Positions 7,175 through 38,375 of a DNA stretch of 64,000 nucleotides are shown in pieces. The translations under genes were made by a program, and so were the position numbers. The stretch's first letter is position 1. Each line of letters begins with the position of its first letter. Source of the stretch: Candidatus Latescibacterota bacterium. Its GTDB lineage: Bacteria > Latescibacterota > UBA2968 > SICM01. The notes under the pieces are model-generated. The model saw nothing but the letters and a program-made list of their open reading frames with translations. It ran no database searches and had not been told where the DNA came from. The stretch is taken from NCBI GenBank assembly GCA_965217865.1, contig CBDCJO010000002.1, positions 2,848,001-2,912,000 of the forward strand. Direction: 5' to 3'.

Positions 7175-7909
7175 ATGTCCTTGAGAAACTACGGTGAAAT
7201 CGTATGTCGGGCGGAATCTCGGAAAAGGCCCTATTTAAACGCCCAGGCGATCGGAGAGGTGGATGGCTATCCCATTATCTGTGTCTCGCTTTCCACCGAT
7301 CACCGGCTCCCGACGGTGCTCATCATCGGGGGCACCCACGGGGACGAACCGGCTGGAGTGGAAGCCGCGCTCGGTTTTATCGATTGTGACATCGGAAGGT
7401 GGCTCGACGAACTCCGCTTTGAAGTCATCCCCTGTTTAAACCCATATGGTTATGTCCACAAAACAAGGCAAAACCGGGAAGGGATCGATGTCAATTGGGC
7501 TTATCGAAAAACGGATGTCCCCGAGATCGGGATCTTTCGTCGTCTAATCAACCATCGTCGGTTCGAGGCGGTAATCGATCTCCACGAGGATTGGGAAAGT
7601 CCGGGATTTTACCTCTACGAGTTGCGCAGGGGGGGAGAGCAATTGGGTGTCGAGCTTGTCCGACGCGTCTCATCAGTCTGTCCGATAAATACGGCCCCCA
7701 GCATCGAGGGCGCACCCGCGGAAGCCGGGATCGTCAAGCCGGATATCGAGTCGGAGGTTGCCAAGCGTGGAGAAGGGATCCCCATCGCCTTGTTCAAGAG
7801 GCATACCGACCACCTGCTGACCTCCGAGACCCCCACTTGCCTGGCCCTTGACACCCGGGTAAAAGCCCACCTCATCACCCTGGACACTGTGATCGAAGCA
7901 CACGCGTAA
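7175..7909 (+). CDS. M14-family metallocarboxypeptidase (AstE/AspA-like)
   Basis: GGTHGDEPAG, PCLNPYGY, RQNREGIDVN, IDLHEDWE zinc-binding motifs. Confidence 0.85.
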   Translation: MSLRNYGEIVCRAESRKRPYLNAQAIGEVDGYPIICVSLSTDHRLPTVLIIGGTHGDEPAGVEAALGFIDCDIGRWLDELRFEVIPCLNPYGYVHKTRQNREGIDVNWAYRKTDVPEIGIFRRLINHRRFEAVIDLHEDWESPGFYLYELRRGGEQLGVELVRRVSSVCPINTAPSIEGAPAEAGIVKPDIESEVAKRGEGIPIALFKRHTDHLLTSETPTCLALDTRVKAHLITLDTVIEAHA

Positions 7910-7992
7910 AGAAAGGAGGTTGTCGAAGTAAGCCGAAACAGCCAAGATTTCTTCTTTAACTTAGAACCTGGAACTTCCTTTGAGGTGATTCC

Positions 7993-8184
7993 ATGCCGAT
8001 CGTTACAGTTAATTGGTTACAGAAGTCCTGCAGAACGCCTGACGTCAAGCGGAAGGTCGCAGATGCGATTATCGATGCCATGTCAGGGGTGGAAGAAGCC
8101 GAGGTTTCGCCCGATCGGGTCTCCGTGAAATTCTCAATCATCGACAACGATCAGCCCGACGAGGGCTATCGCGTAAAGTCTTAG
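7993..8184 (+). CDS. 4-oxalocrotonate tautomerase-family protein
   Basis: 63 aa, N-terminal Pro (MPIVTV), KRKVADAIIDAM...PDRVSV; GAGG RBS. Confidence 0.7.
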   Translation: MPIVTVNWLQKSCRTPDVKRKVADAIIDAMSGVEEAEVSPDRVSVKFSIIDNDQPDEGYRVKS

Positions 8185-8197
8185 GGCCAGGAAAACC

Positions 8198-9715
8198 ATG
8201 TCTCGTACCCCGGTTCAAGCATACGATGAACTGATCCGTCGCATCAAGGCGATTAATCTTCTTCGAAATTGTGAGGGCGTCTTAGGCTGGGATCAGCAGA
8301 CTTACATGCCTCCCAAGGCATCGGCTTACCGTGCGGACCAGCTCGCTTTGCTATCCGGCCTGATCCATGAGCGATTTACCGATCCTGAGATCGGGGACCT
8401 GATCGGCGAGGTGGAAGTCAGCAAATTGGTCACTGATCCGGAATCTGTCCCGGCCGTCAACGTCCGGGAGCTGCGCCGGAGCTTTGACCGTGCGAATCGT
8501 CTGTCCAAGTCGCTGGTGGAGGAGCTGGCGCGTATCTGCTCCCTTTCCAGGGATGAGTGGGTTGAAGCGCGAAAGGCCTCCGATTTCCCCAGGTTCCTAC
8601 CCTGGCTGGAGAAGGTCCTGGCCCTTAAGCGGCAAGAAGCCGCGGCCTACGACGACTCCGTTCACCCCTACGACGCCCTCCTCGAAGACTACGAGCCGGG
8701 CGAGACGACCGCTCACCTGAGGGGGGTCTTCAAAGACCTGCGTGAAGAACTGGTGGTCCTTGTCGATGCCATCGTGGGATCCCGGAAACATCCTGACACC
8801 TCGATCCTGGGCCGGGATTACCCCATCGATCGCCAGGAGGTCCTCGGCAAGGCGGTCGCATCGGCTATCGGTTTCGACTTCGAAGCCGGACGTCTGGATG
8901 TCACGGTGCATCCCTTCTGCGCCGGACTCGGCCCTTTCGACACACGGCTTACCACACGATACGACGCAAGGGAATTCAACCAGGCCCTCTACGGGGTATT
9001 GCACGAGGCCGGACACGGCCTATACGATCAAGGCTTGGACGAGGAGCACCACGGGACCCCGATGGGCGAATCGGTGTCACTCGGAATTCACGAGTCCCAA
9101 TCCCGGATGTGGGAGAACTTCGTAGGCCGCAGCCGGTCCTTTTGGGAGCACTTCTTCCCCGTTGCACGTTCCCTCTTCCACGAGTCCCTGTCCGGGGTCT
9201 CCCTAGACGACCTTCACTTTGCGTGCAACGACGTGCGCCCCTCCTTCATCCGGGTCGAGGCCGACGAAGTTACTTACAACCTTCACATCCTCCTCCGATT
9301 CGAACTGGAGCACGACCTCCTCACCGGGGATCTGCCCGCCCCCGACCTGCCCGGTGCCTGGAACGAGCGATTCAGGACTTTTTTTGATCTCACCCCCCCT
9401 GACGATGCCCGCGGTTGCCTCCAGGATACCCACTGGAGCTTCGGGGGGATCGGATATTTCCCCACCTACAGCCTGGGCAACCTCTACGCCGCTCAGTTTT
9501 TCGACCAGGCGGAAAAGGACCTGGGTAACCTGGATGAAGCGTTTGCCAGGGGAGAGTTCGTGGTCCTGAGGGACTGGCTTCGGGAACATATATACGTTCA
9601 GGGGATGCGGTTCCGGGCGGAGGATCTGGCCAAACGGGTCACAGGGAGACCCCTGAGCCATATGCCCCTGATCAATCACCTCAGGACAAAGTTTGAGGCG
9701 CTTTACGGAATCTAA
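8198..9715 (+). CDS. Carboxypeptidase, peptidase M32 family
   Basis: WDQQTYMP, HPFC, HEAGHGLYDQG, HESQSR, IRVEADEVTYNLH, GYFPTYSLG. Confidence 0.96.
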   Translation: MSRTPVQAYDELIRRIKAINLLRNCEGVLGWDQQTYMPPKASAYRADQLALLSGLIHERFTDPEIGDLIGEVEVSKLVTDPESVPAVNVRELRRSFDRANRLSKSLVEELARICSLSRDEWVEARKASDFPRFLPWLEKVLALKRQEAAAYDDSVHPYDALLEDYEPGETTAHLRGVFKDLREELVVLVDAIVGSRKHPDTSILGRDYPIDRQEVLGKAVASAIGFDFEAGRLDVTVHPFCAGLGPFDTRLTTRYDAREFNQALYGVLHEAGHGLYDQGLDEEHHGTPMGESVSLGIHESQSRMWENFVGRSRSFWEHFFPVARSLFHESLSGVSLDDLHFACNDVRPSFIRVEADEVTYNLHILLRFELEHDLLTGDLPAPDLPGAWNERFRTFFDLTPPDDARGCLQDTHWSFGGIGYFPTYSLGNLYAAQFFDQAEKDLGNLDEAFARGEFVVLRDWLREHIYVQGMRFRAEDLAKRVTGRPLSHMPLINHLRTKFEALYGI

Positions 9716-30683: not shown

Positions 30684-30978
30684 GGGCCCCTGGCCAGAGC
30701 TACTGGACGATCCTTCTATTCGGATTGATCGGATATCCCCATTCCCTGCAAGGCTGTGGACCTTCGTGCTGTGGTCGGATTGGAATACGATGACAACCCG
30801 TTTGAAAGCTCCTCCAAAAAATAAGAGTCCGGGCTGGTCAACAGGTTCTTCGTGGCAACATCCGGGCATCTCCTTAAACGTCCTGGGGGAGGTCTTCATC
30901 TCGGGTATCAGGGGGGTGTAAAGCGCATATGGCGGGAGGACCCACAAACACAGGGGACCTTCGGGGACGTAGTCATGG
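30680..30978 (+). pseudogene. Frameshifted, truncated N-terminus of a probable outer-membrane beta-barrel protein
   Basis: Signal-like segment, then AVVGLEYDDNPFE and RFFVATSG...LGYQGGVK in shifting frames; cut by the IS110 fragment. Confidence 0.45.
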
Positions 30979-31322
30979 CCACCACCATCCGATCCGGCCC
31001 GCAATCTTTGATGCGTCGCTCCAGATGCTGCCAGAGGGTATGGTCATATCCCGCTCGCGTCACGGGGAATGAGAAGGCCCCGCCTTGCTGAAGTCCGGAG
31101 GGATCGAGCACCGACCCGCTGTGTTTTTCCTTGCCCGGATCGATCCCGAGGACGAAATTCTGGGAGATGGCCTGTCGTTTAAGGTGGAAGATTTTCGACT
31201 TCATCGTATACCTCCAGCGTTGAGGGTTGAGTTTGCTTGCGCTTGCCGAATCTTAAGACACCTTGCCTTGCAAGGGAAGATTCAGCCCCTCAACGCTGTT
31301 TTTTCCTCCTTTACTCAATATA
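30975..31322 (-). mobile_element. IS110-family remnant (left end plus 5' transposase fragment) at an attC site
   Basis: ORF from 31204 with VLGIDPGKEKHSG (DEDD N-terminus); upstream hairpin CAGCGTTGAGGG/CCCTCAACGCTG (31215-31298); abuts AGAAATCGTTAG, the same tail as attC 32812-32902. Confidence 0.75.
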
Positions 31323-33637: not shown

Positions 33638-34660
33638 ACATATTAAAGGCCCCGGGTCAAGAAAAAAAGACCCCTTCATCACGATTTTCACCGTTTTTTT
33701 GCGACCCTAACGGTCGGGACTTGCAATGAGCCGATCCGAAGAGGTTTAGCGATGTTCGGATCTTTGTCAGTCGCCAGTCTGGCTCGATTTTCACATACCG
33801 GGCTAGATGTGAGCCATCTGCACCAAACACGTATTGGAAATCAAGCGTCTCTCACGGTATTCTGTGGAGCGCCCTGGGAGAGGCTTTTCCTCTCCCTCCA
33901 GAAAATAATCGGTACCCCTTGCGACCCAATCAAGAAGGATGGCTGTTCTCCCCTTTTTGTGAGGGGGAACGCCAGTTAGGTTCGGGTTCATCGCGGGGGC
34001 AGACGGACTGACTGTCTCAGATCCGCTCATCTATGTTCTATATAAGGGGTGAAGGCGGCTTCCCAATCACAGCGGGAGAGCTGGGCTATTGTCCGGACGT
34101 TGCCCTGCCAGTTAGCTGCCGGGTTAACCGCCCCACCCATTATGCTACAAACCGTTTCTCGTCGAATGCCTGGCCACTTTTGAGCATTTGGTAGGCGGCC
34201 ACGCCGAATTTATGAGCGATGACGCTCTTGGCTTTTCCCGGACCGTGTTTGCTCTTGAGTTTCTCGTAGTTTCTATTGATCGGTTCTGACCATCGCTGAG
34301 CCACGAGGATGATTTCCGAGAAGGCCCACTTTAGGTGTGGGTTTCCGATTTTGTTATTCCCGTCCTTTGTCTTCTTCCCAGCGGACTCTCTCTCGACTTT
34401 GATCAGCCGGCTGTAGGAGGAGAAGGCTGAAGCGGATTTGAACCGTTCAACCGTGTGGATTTCATACAGGATGGTCATGGCCAGCATCTCCCCAAGTCCG
34501 GGAACCGTCATCAGGATAGACAGGGCATTGCGATCGTGATGTTTGGCCTGTGCAAGGACTTGCTTCTCGACTTTGTAGATCATTTTGTCCAGGGAGTCAA
34601 CCAGGTCCAGATCGCAGCCCACAGACATACCCAGATCTGGGTCGGCCAGACGTTCGCACG
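33638..34660 (-). mobile_element. IS110/IS1111-like remnant (3' transposase half plus long right non-coding end) at the R'' box of attC 3
   Basis: TVPGLG, RFKSASAFSSY, ESAGK, KIGNPHLKWAF; outward-facing TTGACC near the right end; attC 3 stops right after ACCTAACACA. Confidence 0.8.
33780..34138 (-). ncRNA. Candidate bridge/seek RNA with two target-like loops and one donor-like loop
   Basis: Two modules AACCCG-N3/4-CTAACTGGC...TGATTGGG (34047-34138, 33915-33999) and a third stem-loop (33782-33846) sharing TATGTG with the element end. Confidence 0.6.
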
Positions 34661-34883
34661 TGTCCTTGTGAACTGAAACCTTCAGGTTCCGGTTCAGGGC
34701 GTCCAGAGCGTAATTGACTTGCTCGGCCGCCCTTCCGGCCTCCTCCTGATCGACCTCCTGCCCGCCTTGGGGCTCTCTTTGTGTCGATCCCGATCTGCTA
34801 TCGCGTTCGACCGGCACAGGGCTGGACCCATTCTGGCGCTGAAGCCTCATCTCTCTTGCAGCAATTGCGCCGATTGTATCCAT
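34140..34883 (-). CDS. flaG: In-frame chimera: FlaG N-terminus fused to IS110 transposase C-terminus
   Basis: AAEQVNYALDALNRNLKVSVHKDT is FlaG-like and sits directly after flagellin; from ~34660 it is transposase. Confidence 0.7.
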   Translation of the reverse strand: MDTIGAIAAREMRLQRQNGSSPVPVERDSRSGSTQREPQGGQEVDQEEAGRAAEQVNYALDALNRNLKVSVHKDTCERLADPDLGMSVGCDLDLVDSLDKMIYKVEKQVLAQAKHHDRNALSILMTVPGLGEMLAMTILYEIHTVERFKSASAFSSYSRLIKVERESAGKKTKDGNNKIGNPHLKWAFSEIILVAQRWSEPINRNYEKLKSKHGPGKAKSVIAHKFGVAAYQMLKSGQAFDEKRFVA

Positions 34884-34998: not shown

Positions 34999-36168
34999 TT
35001 ACCCGAGCAGCGACAAGGCGCTTTGCGGAAGGACGTTCGCCTGAGCCAGCAAGGCCGTGCCCGCCTGGACCAGGATCTGGCTTCTCGTGAATGCCGATAC
35101 CTCGGTCGCTATGTCCGCATCCCGGATGGATGATTCTGACGCCTGAATGTTTTCGATCGTGTTCTCGTTCGACCGCATGTTGAACGAGAGGCGGTTCTGA
35201 AACGCGCCGAGGGAACCCCGCTGGTTGGCCACGGTGGAGATCGCCGTGTCAATCGTCGTGATTGCGCTCTGCGCCCCCGATTGGGTAGAGGCCGAAAGCG
35301 CGCCCAGAGACAGCTGCGTCCCCGACGCGCTCATGTCGTCGATGCTGATGTCGAGGCGGTGGACCGCCCCGTCCCTCGGACCGATCTGGAAGGAGCCTCC
35401 GGTCGCGGACGCGTCGATCTCGATGATGGTGGTGTCCAGGTCCCCGTCTGTATAACCGTTGCTCGCCGGGGAGGTCCGGACGCCCGTCAGCGTAACCTGA
35501 ATTCCCAGCCGGTCGAAGTTCGCGATGATCGTGGTGCCCGTGGCCACCTGGCTGCCGTCGAGGGCAGGCCCCAGATCGATCGTCTGCGACACGGTCCCGT
35601 TGCCCAGGGTCACCAATCCGTCATTATTAACGGTATCTTGAAACGTGTAGGTCCCCGCTGCCGCACTGGAAATCTGCACATTGATCGCACCCGTGTCATT
35701 GGATGTGGTAAGAGCCGTGGACGCGGCTTGGTCGACCGTGTTCCCGAATCCCCTCAAGAGGTTCGTGTTGTTGTAAGAAGTGACATCGGCGATCCGGTCG
35801 ATCTCCGATACGAGCTGGGTAAACTCAGCGTTGATCGAGACCCGGTTGGAGTCCGTCACAGTCGAAGAGGCGGACTGAACCGAAAGCTCCCGCATTCGGA
35901 TCAAGACCGCGTTGATCTCGTTGAGCGAACCCTCAGCGGTCTGGATCAGGTTAGTGGCCTGTTCAGCGTTTTTCACAGCCTGTCGCAGACCGGTGAGTTC
36001 TCCCCTCATCCCTTCGGACACACTCAGACCGGCTGCATCATCGGCCGCCCTGTTGATCCGCAATCCCGACGAAAGCCGCTCTATACGAACTGCCAGATCT
36101 CGGTTGTTGATACCGAGTTGCCGGCGAACGTTGAGAGACGGAATGTTATTTCTAACTCGGAGTGGCAT
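34999..36168 (-). CDS. fliC: Flagellin (sigma28 promoter)
   Basis: ERLSSGLRINRAADDAAGL, QTAEGSLNE, RGSLGAFQNRL, SESSIRDADIA, QANVLPQSALSLLG. Confidence 0.97.
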   Translation of the reverse strand: MPLRVRNNIPSLNVRRQLGINNRDLAVRIERLSSGLRINRAADDAAGLSVSEGMRGELTGLRQAVKNAEQATNLIQTAEGSLNEINAVLIRMRELSVQSASSTVTDSNRVSINAEFTQLVSEIDRIADVTSYNNTNLLRGFGNTVDQAASTALTTSNDTGAINVQISSAAAGTYTFQDTVNNDGLVTLGNGTVSQTIDLGPALDGSQVATGTTIIANFDRLGIQVTLTGVRTSPASNGYTDGDLDTTIIEIDASATGGSFQIGPRDGAVHRLDISIDDMSASGTQLSLGALSASTQSGAQSAITTIDTAISTVANQRGSLGAFQNRLSFNMRSNENTIENIQASESSIRDADIATEVSAFTRSQILVQAGTALLAQANVLPQSALSLLG

Positions 36169-36210
36169 CTGACAACCTCCTTGTCTGCCTCATACCTTTA
36201 TGAGACACTC

Positions 36211-36228
36211 TATGGCATCCTTGCCATA
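36211..36228 (-). promoter_or_regulatory. CsrA/RsmA-type hairpin in flagellin 5' UTR
   Basis: TATGGCA-AGGA-TGCCATA with GGA in the loop, ~30 nt before SD AAGGAGG. Confidence 0.7.
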
Positions 36229-36377
36229 CCGGACGTTGGCGGTGTCCGGTGTTTCGTTCGACTGGTCTTTACAACTAAACAACAAAGGCCGTCTGACCGG
36301 CCTTGATCAGAAATACAATTAGGCCTTCACCTCCTTAGAGACGCTTAATTCCGTGTGGTTTAGCTCTTTGTCCATGG

Positions 36378-36405
36378 ATATCGGCAAAATCCACACGAAT
36401 CTTTA
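36378..36405 (-). promoter_or_regulatory. Sigma28 promoter, fliC-proximal
   Basis: TAAAGATT-N12-GCCGATAT. Confidence 0.7.
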
Positions 36406-36590
36406 ATGCGATCTGCAATGATTCGGAGGCAAAAGCCCTCAAGGGGGCCGGTATGACAGCCTTTTATATAAAAAAACGGCTATTTCGATTTTATTACACT
36501 TTTTCTATACAGGTCCTCTCATATGATACGTGATTGACCCTGTTTGTGCTCAATTTAGCTGCGATGTCCGGATCAAAAGACATCAAAATT

Positions 36591-36755
36591 CAACAATAAC
36601 CCGTTTATATACAATCTATTATCCCTTTCTTCTTGTTCCTGGCGCTCACCCGCCGCCACGCGGGATAGAGGTTGTCAGATGCCACTCTGTTAATGATGCC
36701 GCCTGGATCAGAGAATTATATTAGATTGTATTATATAACTTAGTATTGTTTGGTA
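36591..36755 (-). ncRNA. Candidate sigma28-dependent structured antisense RNA against the flagellin RBS/start
   Basis: Starts just downstream of the 36762-36788 promoter; ends are complementary; interior has GAGTGGCATCTGACAACCTC, the exact reverse complement of the fliC RBS+ATG region. Confidence 0.6.
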
Positions 36756-36761
36756 TAATTC

Positions 36762-36788
36762 ATATCGGCCTGCAAATCTAAACCTTTA
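36762..36788 (-). promoter_or_regulatory. Sigma28 promoter, distal
   Basis: TAAAGGTT-N11-GCCGATAT, near consensus. Confidence 0.8.
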
Positions 36789-36978
36789 CCCTTTTTTCCG
36801 CTCTTTTCCAACCGATTCCGCCAACCTGCATCGACGGACAATCAATGTGTGCGAGCGTACCGGCGAGGTAGGGATGCAATTCAGCCTGGATTGCAGACGT
36901 GAGGACACGTTTTCGATCTTTTGTGCTGAACACTAGATGAATCAGGATGCGGGACAGGGATTGGGGGATGTGAAATTA

Positions 36979-37064
36979 TCGCGGCCTTTCAGGCCGCACG
37001 ACGGTATTGCTTTCCAAGGACCCAGGGCAGCTCGCCTGGGTTGAGGGACAACGCGCCGTTGGCG
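36979..37064. repeat. REP-like palindrome cluster
   Basis: GCGGCCT TTC AGGCCGC; ACCCAGG..CCTGGGT; GCGCC GTT GGCGC. Confidence 0.5.
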
Positions 37065-37235
37065 CTGAAAGAAGGCCCTGACTTTAGCCTCGGCTTCTCG
37101 ATTAGCTCGAAGGCCAATCGCGAAGACAGGGTCCACACGGAGAGCCAAAAAAAACGGAGAAAGAAGGTATCTTCAGTCTCCGTTAAAATGCATGATTCCG
37201 GACGTTCCCAAACTAGTCCTTTAATTTTTAATACG

Positions 37236-38375
37236 TTACTGCAACAAAGAAAGCGCAGTCTGCGGTATCGCGTTGGCCTGCACCAGGACGGCCGTCGCAG
37301 CCTGGGTTAAAATTTGTGCCCTGGTGAACTCCGAGACCTCCTCCGCGACATCTGCGTCTCGAATTGACGACTCGGAAGCTTGGATGTTTTGAATTGCGTT
37401 CTGGGTCGATGCAATCGTAAAGGACATTCTGTTTTGAAGGGCTCCGATATTGCCGCGTTCCCGAGCGATCCTATCGATCGCAACGTCGAGCCCCGATAAT
37501 GCGTTTCGGGCATTCTCCAGAGTTCCGATAGATATCGAGTTCAGGTTCAATTCCGGCCCGCTTGCCCGCATGTCACCAATGTTAAACTGGATCTGGTTAA
37601 AGACGCCTGAGTCCGGCCCCACCTGGAATGTTCCTCCGGTCCCTGCTATGACAACAAGGGTAGTCGCATCCAGATCCCCATCGGTATAGTTATCGTTTAG
37701 ATTCAGGATAATGCCAAGTCGATCGAAGTTGGCGATCGCCGTCGTCCCTGTAGCCACCTGGTTTCCGTCAAGGGCAGTGGCAATGTTGATCGTCTGTGTC
37801 ACCGTCCCGTTGCCCAGCGTAACCTGGCTGTCCGTGCTGCCAGAATCGATAAACGTATACGTCCCGGACTGTGCACCGGAGATGCTCGCGCTGGTCACAC
37901 CCACTGCTGCATTGGAAAGGGAAGTGGACAGCGTGGCGCTTACCGTGTTCCCGAATCCAACCAGGAGGACCGTGTCATTATAAGACGTCACGTTCGCCAG
38001 ACGATCGATTTCGGAGATCAGCTGGTTGTACTCAGCCGTCAGGCCCACCCGGTTGTTATCGTTGATCGTAGATGACGCCGATTGAGCGGCCAATTCTCGC
38101 ATCCGGATCAACATGGCGCTGACCTCGTTCAACGCCCCTTCGGCAACCTGAGTCAGGTTAGTGGCTTGTTCCGCGTTTCTCATCGCCTGAGTCAGGCCGC
38201 CGATCTCGGCCCGCAAGCCTTCGCTTACGGCCAGTCCGGCTGCATCGTCGGCCGACCGATTGATCCGGAGCCCGGTTGCAAGACGCTCGATCCGGGTCGA
38301 AAGCGTCTTGCTGTTCGCAGACAGCGCACGTCTGGCGCTGATCGCAGTGATATTATTGTTGACCCTGAGAGGCAT
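37236..38375 (-). CDS. fliC: Flagellin (sigma54 promoter)
   Basis: ERLATGLRINRSADDAAGL, QVAEGALNE, RGNIGALQNRM, SESSIRDADVA. Confidence 0.97.
   Translation of the reverse strand: MPLRVNNNITAISARRALSANSKTLSTRIERLATGLRINRSADDAAGLAVSEGLRAEIGGLTQAMRNAEQATNLTQVAEGALNEVSAMLIRMRELAAQSASSTINDNNRVGLTAEYNQLISEIDRLANVTSYNDTVLLVGFGNTVSATLSTSLSNAAVGVTSASISGAQSGTYTFIDSGSTDSQVTLGNGTVTQTINIATALDGNQVATGTTAIANFDRLGIILNLNDNYTDGDLDATTLVVIAGTGGTFQVGPDSGVFNQIQFNIGDMRASGPELNLNSISIGTLENARNALSGLDVAIDRIARERGNIGALQNRMSFTIASTQNAIQNIQASESSIRDADVAEEVSEFTRAQILTQAATAVLVQANAIPQTALSLLQ

Follow-up and report, generated by a model that had tools for sequence, protein, structure and literature searches.

The known determinants of flagellin choice are DNA inversion, repressor proteins and trans-acting sRNAs. 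Fold-back inhibition of IS10 is a case in which a Shine–Dalgarno (SD) sequence is sequestered in cis, and in yeast long undecoded transcript isoforms (LUTIs) initiation at an upstream site yields a silent 5′-extended mRNA, by which the gene is turned off. LUTIs belong to eukaryotes and owe their silence to uORFs and chromatin; at the locus described here, upstream of the flagellin gene fliC1, silencing would instead rest on base pairing alone. The sigma28-dependent sRNAs that act on flagellar mRNAs include, in the available parts of the reports, CjNC1 and CjNC4 of Campylobacter, which act without Hfq (PMC4626219), and UhpU, MotR, FliX and FlgO of E. coli, among which MotR stems from a 5′UTR (PMC10578931). 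FlaX of Vibrio cholerae arises from a flagellin locus and, according to the accessible sections of the source, base-pairs with a flagellin mRNA at several sites, preventing 30S binding and changing the make-up of the filament (PMC11879080). Structures that sequester the SD in cis are described, again in the portions available, for the IS200 tnpA 5′UTR (PMC4513863) and the Borrelia and E. coli rpoS leader (PMC3966842), while in S. aureus icaR a long-range 3′–5′ pairing over the SD forms an RNase III substrate (PMC3868564). In the Salmonella fljBA system, as far as the available text describes it, a product co-expressed with one flagellin blocks the translation of another, this product being the FljA protein under the control of DNA inversion (PMC2652032).

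The fliC1 element resembles each of these systems in part. As with CjNC1/CjNC4 and UhpU/MotR/FliX/FlgO, a sigma28-driven (here predicted) non-coding RNA would act on a flagellar mRNA. Those sRNAs are, in the sections available, short and discrete and work in trans on the leaders of sigma54 genes or inside the fliC coding region, whereas the fliC1 element offers 17–21 nt of pairing to the SD and AUG of its immediate downstream neighbour, which is encoded on the same strand, as one part of a much larger predicted fold-back. It carries its own promoter (as a motif only) and a conserved seed to a flagellar initiation region, both marks of a sigma28-dependent sRNA; a third mark, a terminator or conserved self-contained fold that would define a discrete short transcript, was not found, there being no terminator-like site between the promoters and a 175-nt fold that reaches z below −2 in 2 of 13 genomes. 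Like FlaX, it would provide an RNA from a flagellin locus that pairs with flagellin mRNA; FlaX, in its available description, is processed from a 3′UTR, needs ProQ and targets a different flagellin, whereas the fliC1 element comes with a promoter motif of its own and lies collinear with its target. With IS200 tnpA, rpoS and icaR, in the parts of those sources available, it shares a predicted pairing of one part of the transcript with its own SD that would block initiation, but its inhibitory arm would be confined to a longer isoform, made from a second promoter that the same sigma factor serves, and its fold would span about 490 nt, mirror most of the normal leader and have its apex on the gene’s own promoter. 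Unlike fljBA as it is presented in the available text, the reading proposed here involves neither a protein repressor nor inversion, only base pairing. Our literature search, incomplete in coverage, found no report of the fliC1 element or of a flagellin fold-back isoform.

The window (the whole 64,000-nt stretch analysed) belongs to a lineage that, to our knowledge, has no cultured members. All features of the locus lie on the minus strand (Table 1). A sequence-only reading had placed a near-consensus sigma28 promoter about 75 nt ahead of a segment antisense to the fliC ribosome-binding site, with no convincing ORF after it, and had given fliC a proximal sigma28 promoter of its own. All of this was recovered: the distance from the distal motif to the 20-mer is 75 nt, no minus-strand ORF of at least 50 aa lies between the two promoters, and the proximal motif is present. 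The distal motif was matched in all 14 orthologous loci that reach that far and the proximal motif is kept in 15/15; FliA is encoded in the genome. A sequence scan of this genome found no terminator-like site between the distal and proximal promoters. A leader peptide was also considered and rejected, as no uORF is conserved across the relatives.

Table 1. Positions of the features of the fliC1 locus in the window.
Feature	Position	Strand	Details
fliC1	34999..36168	(-)	regulated gene, 389-aa flagellin
Target region	36160..36183	(-)	fliC1 SD, spacer, AUG, first codons
Further GGA hairpin	36227-36212	(-)	
3′ arm of predicted rod	36284..36358	(-)	first half of short fliC leader; GGA motif 36336-36327; terminator-like hairpin 36304-36285
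Proximal sigma28-type promoter motif	36378..36405	(-)	TAAA-N16-GCCGATAT; predicted start near 36371; apex of predicted rod
5′ arm of predicted central rod	36391..36464	(-)	pieces 36464-36455, 36452-36446, 36438-36425, 36399-36391 (last inside proximal promoter spacer)
~165-nt stem-loop	36591..36755	(-)	possible co-transcriptional holding fold in this species only
A1, anti-start segment	36667..36687	(-)	20 Watson-Crick pairs + one G-U
10-bp-period direct-repeat motif	36736..36757	(-)	just after distal -10 box; putative operator common to other flagellin promoters
Distal sigma28-type promoter motif	36762..36788	(-)	TAAAGGTT-N11-GCCGATAT (TAAAG-...-GCCGATAT); predicted start near 36755
fliC2	37236..38375	(-)	379-aa upstream flagellin, possible read-through source; sigma54-type motif 38523-38509

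At the core of the element is an exact 20-nt inverted pair (36160–36179 and 36668–36687). As the sequence-only reading held, the distal copy is a perfect inverted copy of the fliC start region, and the complement of A1 comprises the SD, the AUG and two codons of fliC1; minus-strand RNA running through 36687–36668 is therefore antisense to fliC1 mRNA. This 20-mer is the sole perfect copy in the 6.4-Mb assembly. When the starts of 4489 long ORFs were compared, fliC1 had the longest exact anti-start match within 1 kb, and matches of 14 nt were reached by only three of these starts. A search against Rfam returned two chance snoRNA matches, both inside the coding region, and no family match within the element, which thus has no sequence homology to a described RNA family there.

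We searched for orthologues in 132 genomes of the class together with metagenome and genome contigs, and examined the 900 nt ahead of each of 60 distinct flagellin starts for an antisense stretch. The anti-start helix was found, about 430–572 nt upstream, in all 15 loci at 66.2% identity or more that had enough upstream DNA, representing 13 genomes (families f1, f3 and f4) and two contigs, and at 0/45 of the other flagellin starts. Two of these 45 came near in energy, but with interrupted duplexes and near-equal reverse-strand controls. On a quick protein tree the carriers fall within one 18-row clade (SH-aLRT 91), four rows of which are contigs too short upstream to contain A1 (L033, L034, L037 and L038).

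Within the carriers, A1 tracks six versions of the SD–AUG spacer, including one with a one-base insertion. In the 14-row alignment (L035, near-identical to G055, was omitted from the 14-row analyses), 97.2% of cells are paired and 12 are changed on both sides, a count that overstates the number of independent events since the sequences are related. None of 500 shuffles paired as highly, and registers slid along the alignment gave 34–53%. Co-variation of the 20-mer with the fliC start, suggested earlier as a check, is thus found among the relatives. Departures from Watson–Crick pairing are mostly G-U (in G054/G055, G060, G059 and G034, and at the end pair of this genome), with one A-C mismatch in G057–G059; this predominance of G-U points to RNA. 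On these comparisons the fliC1 element is real, conserved and strongly co-varying, and they support a putative sigma28-promoted RNA with a core under selection for pairing with the start region, SD and AUG, of the flagellin beside it.

The fliC1 query retrieved no orthologue in G052, G053 and G061, all flagellated f3 genomes; the best match in G061 is a stand-alone flagellin paralog that is split near codon 16 by an insertion-sequence-like element of ~1.4 kb (L070, about 7700–9200). Another arrangement is seen in family f2, in which 8 of the 11 flagellins examined have two sigma28 motifs about 90–150 nt apart, in most cases with a hairpin between them, no antisense segment and little change in SD access. 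Six f2 loci (L005, L017, L058, L062, L065 and L066) have their tandem sigma28 motifs spaced about 100 nt apart on either side of a long near-perfect hairpin, as well as a conserved GGGA-loop hairpin in the leader.

The pairing is also specific, in line with the earlier suggestion that the RNA acts on one flagellin paralog. Against 49 paralog starts in the same 13 genomes, A1 scored −33.7 kcal/mol or weaker, compared with −34.5 to −45.3 kcal/mol against its own gene in the six genomes listed. In this genome the next-best targets are the C1 paralog (−29) and then the sigma54 flagellin (−24 versus −42 kcal/mol for fliC1), the latter agreeing with the partial match described before. Most f3/f4 loci, but not those of f1, carry a second anti-start segment at about −335 to −305, which in G057–G059 pairs better with another paralog (−32 to −36) than with its own gene (−27 to −30). 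The better pairing of this second segment with a distant flagellin paralog, at L055, L056 and L057, where it lies about −335 to −310 from the AUG, is a hint of action in trans.

The sequence-only reading had enclosed the anti-RBS segment in an AU-rich stem-loop of ~165 nt. It does fold as described in this genome (−46.7 kcal/mol, z −3.6, with 0/200 shuffles as stable), but the equivalent 175-nt window, compared in 13 genomes, reaches z below −2 here and in G032 (−2.1) and is weaker than −2 in the other 11. The 3′ arm is not conserved; among the 40 strain differences listed, four fall on paired stem positions, where two pairs persist as G-U and two are broken; and within the full predicted transcript the pairs of the stem have a probability of 0.0. 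We therefore rejected the stem as a conserved structure on account of the 2/13 windows and the unconserved arm. In this species it may serve as a holding fold during transcription.

A larger structure is predicted instead across the whole leader. Segments of the inter-promoter DNA are complementary, arranged in nested order, to the greater part of fliC’s own 5′ leader, and this complementarity is conserved, with nested helices connecting −430..−255 to −170..−75. In this genome the rod helices (36464–36455/36293–36284, 36452–36446/36302–36296, 36438–36425/36334–36321 and 36399–36391/36358–36350) have probabilities of 0.93–0.99. Counting pairs that cross the proximal start in a 250-nt window centred on it, 11 of 14 orthologues had at least 60, a number reached by 1 of the 32 other flagellin promoters that served as controls; G034 (z −0.5), G056 and G057 (19–40 crossing pairs) show a weak rod. 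Folding z-scores of about −2 or lower occurred in 13/14 orthologues versus 17/32 control promoters, and we discarded the z-score across the proximal start as a stand-alone test given that so many controls pass. Since z-scores fail to separate orthologues from controls, we argue the rod from crossing pairs and alignments. Consensus folding was carried out by subgroup because the 5′ arms could not be aligned between families, and yielded one long nested hairpin with changes on both sides at 5/62, 5/29 and 16/127 pairs; folding all 14 sequences together recovered just one 5-pair helix.

In the innermost helices, bases of the proximal-promoter spacer and −10 box pair across small loops with bases just past the start. 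As these promoter bases are absent from the short mRNA and the loops are small, we prefer one continuous RNA, with the caveat that, for every helix lying 5′ of the proximal −35 box, pairing in trans would work just as well. The computed cost of opening the SD–AUG region was 14–29 kcal/mol in the long form versus 4–10 in the short form at 13 of 14 loci, the reduced SD accessibility expected of a leader that sequesters the SD in cis. The exception is G032 (5.4 long versus 6.5 short), where the long form is no more closed because the second anti-start segment pairs with the AUG instead. Of the two options raised earlier, an sRNA or a fold-back leader, the fold-back leader fits better, in that conserved pairing continues across the proximal promoter and on into the fliC leader; the ~165-nt sRNA has an unconserved stem with no terminator after it. 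The earlier reading had the target right and was probably too small in scope. Three GGA motifs in the leader are conserved. The short fliC leader further holds a terminator-like hairpin followed by a U-rich tract (36304–36275, minus strand); every orthologue retains a hairpin with a U/G-rich tail here, which is unfolded in the predicted long form and could be an attenuator or a protein-binding site.

A direct repeat of 10-bp period immediately follows the distal −10 box wherever the sequence extends that far (14/14 loci). Using a matrix trained on 13 of these loci and a score cut-off of at least 15, we recovered 14/14 distal promoters (13 being the training set), 0/15 proximal promoters and 18 of 76 sigma28-like sites at other flagellins of the class, values that AT-richness may inflate. 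Just one of 540 relaxed sites in this genome passed, namely the fliC1 distal promoter itself, and the other flagellin promoters here have weak versions scoring 7.6 or less. Across 168 genomes of the phylum, a strict promoter-plus-repeat pattern retrieved four known carriers and one ordinary f2 flagellin promoter. These distributions tentatively suggest that the fliC1 distal promoter is co-regulated with a subset of other flagellins by the repeat motif. The repeat also stands immediately after the sigma28 −10 box at many flagellin promoters of the class (repeat-bearing loci are L024, L075, L081, L089, L091–L093, L096, L105, L106 and L115), and constitutes an undescribed candidate operator.

Taken as a whole, the conserved complementary element is likely an RNA-only off switch for the fliC1 flagellin. 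On balance we lean towards a model in which the distal sigma28-type promoter drives a ~590-nt 5′-extended fliC1 transcript that locks its own initiation region. When this putative promoter fires, the extended transcript would fold back so that A1 buries the RBS and AUG and turns fliC1 down, while the 5′ arm would also pair with the first half of the normal leader in a rod of at least 60 pairs centred on the proximal promoter. The long isoform would go untranslated and might then be cut by RNase III or terminated by Rho, both of which are present in the genome, and transcription across the proximal promoter could lower the amount of the short, translatable mRNA. Through the repeat motif, the distal promoter might be linked to other flagellin promoters, such that fliC1 would be damped upon their induction. 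This fold would equally keep read-through transcripts of the upstream sigma54 flagellin silent. Counted against the fold-back lock is its ~490-nt loop, which would give ribosomes time only once the SD is made. More tentatively, and with the balance somewhat against it, the arrangement may be a bacterial counterpart of a LUTI: a sigma28 upstream promoter, sharing its operator with alternative flagellins, would produce a self-locked mRNA that both occludes the normal promoter and is untranslatable, which would make a protein-free, inversion-free switch. If the long isoform exists, a gene would be switched off by transcription from further upstream, through a half-kilobase hairpin kept across three families of one class, and the fliC1 leader would serve as a compact and testable bacterial model for repression by isoforms and as a natural template for designing an RNA lock.

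The same pairing might act in trans, with a discrete RNA of ~165–330 nt from the distal promoter, terminated by Rho or cut from the leader, binding the short fliC1 mRNA and blocking its translation. This is the chief alternative, though less likely as the principal role; it can coexist with the cis fold and several features are in its favour: within a 5′ fragment of 165 or 331 nt, opening the 20-mer costs only 5.5 kcal/mol against a duplex of −42, the 5′ half forms a self-contained fold via an internal GGAGG in 6/14 loci, and the second segment of f3/f4 would leave one copy free and, in G057–G059, has a better score against another paralog than against its own gene. E. coli MotR, in the available part of its report, offers a precedent as a sigma28 sRNA derived from a 5′UTR (PMC10578931). 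Weighing on the other side are the missing terminator-like site between the promoters, the unconserved 165-nt fold and an element that, among the loci examined, is always found with its target; nor would this reading explain why pairing across the proximal promoter is conserved. Neither Hfq nor ProQ was found in this 96%-complete assembly, though a pairing of 20 bp may not need them. Even under this alternative, the element would be a well-supported, co-varying regulator. A further account, to which we assign a low probability, makes the fold-back mainly an insulator against translation of fliC1 on read-through from the sigma54 flagellin, with the distal sigma28 motif secondary. In its favour, the end of the upstream flagellin lies only 40–209 nt ahead of the distal −35 box in 13 loci of relatives, in most cases with no T-run, and in f2 flagellins a simple, strong hairpin occupies the equivalent position and no antisense segment is present; but the distal promoter and repeat motifs, needless for that purpose, are kept in 14/14 loci, and in this genome a repeat element intervenes between fliC2 and the distal promoter.

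Two DNA-level explanations appear very improbable. A perfect 20-bp inverted repeat flanking a 488-bp segment with the fliC promoter is the layout of Hin-type switches, as set out in the available part of PMC2652032, and the two 20-mers could thus be recombination arms of an invertible segment for flagellar phase variation. All 14 aligned loci nevertheless have one orientation, the arms of eight relatives carry G-T, A-C or C-A mismatches over 19 aligned columns, and, as RNA, the interior of the segment is self-pairing. In 4/4 runs, where contigs drop rare variants, the arms showed no opposite-strand joint, and in two of them single contigs span both arms. We give just as little credence to the 20-mer being the guide of an RNA-guided DNA-binding protein such as TldR, even though TldR systems use 16-nt guides to repress the fliC of their host and some of them are encoded next to csrA and fliC, according to the accessible sections of PMC10705468. 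No TnpB/Cas12f domain was found in this genome or in 3/5 other carriers, and none adjoins the locus; the match falls on the SD and AUG instead of the promoter and lies mid-transcript without a conserved scaffold or an Rfam family match.

With respect to protein partners of the proposed fold-back leader, searches of this 96%-complete assembly found no FlbT and no TnpB domain, as for Hfq and ProQ above, and control of the FlbT type was rejected on that basis. The sequence-only reading had set the RNA on top of CsrA control. This is plausible for the lineage, csrA being present in 42 of 132 class genomes and 10 of 13 A1 carriers, but csrA was not found in this assembly. Nor did the cluster flgA-flgH-flgI-flgJ-flgN-flgK-flgL-fliW-csrA of G001 have a match in this assembly (G000), which retains fliA and several flagellin genes despite the missing flg-fliW-csrA cluster; its absence is most simply an assembly gap, or else a loss.

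Between fliC2 and the distal promoter lies a non-coding palindromic repeat element (36824–37150), which we label MITE-like; it has 55 blastn matches in this genome and is missing at the same locus in G001 and G002. The ORF after fliC1 (34140–34883, minus strand) has a C-terminal half that is an IS110-family transposase fragment, and its N-terminus looks FlaG-like, so that we presume an insertion into flaG. A short ORF at 30908–31204 (minus strand) resembles what we take to be the start of another IS110-type transposase.
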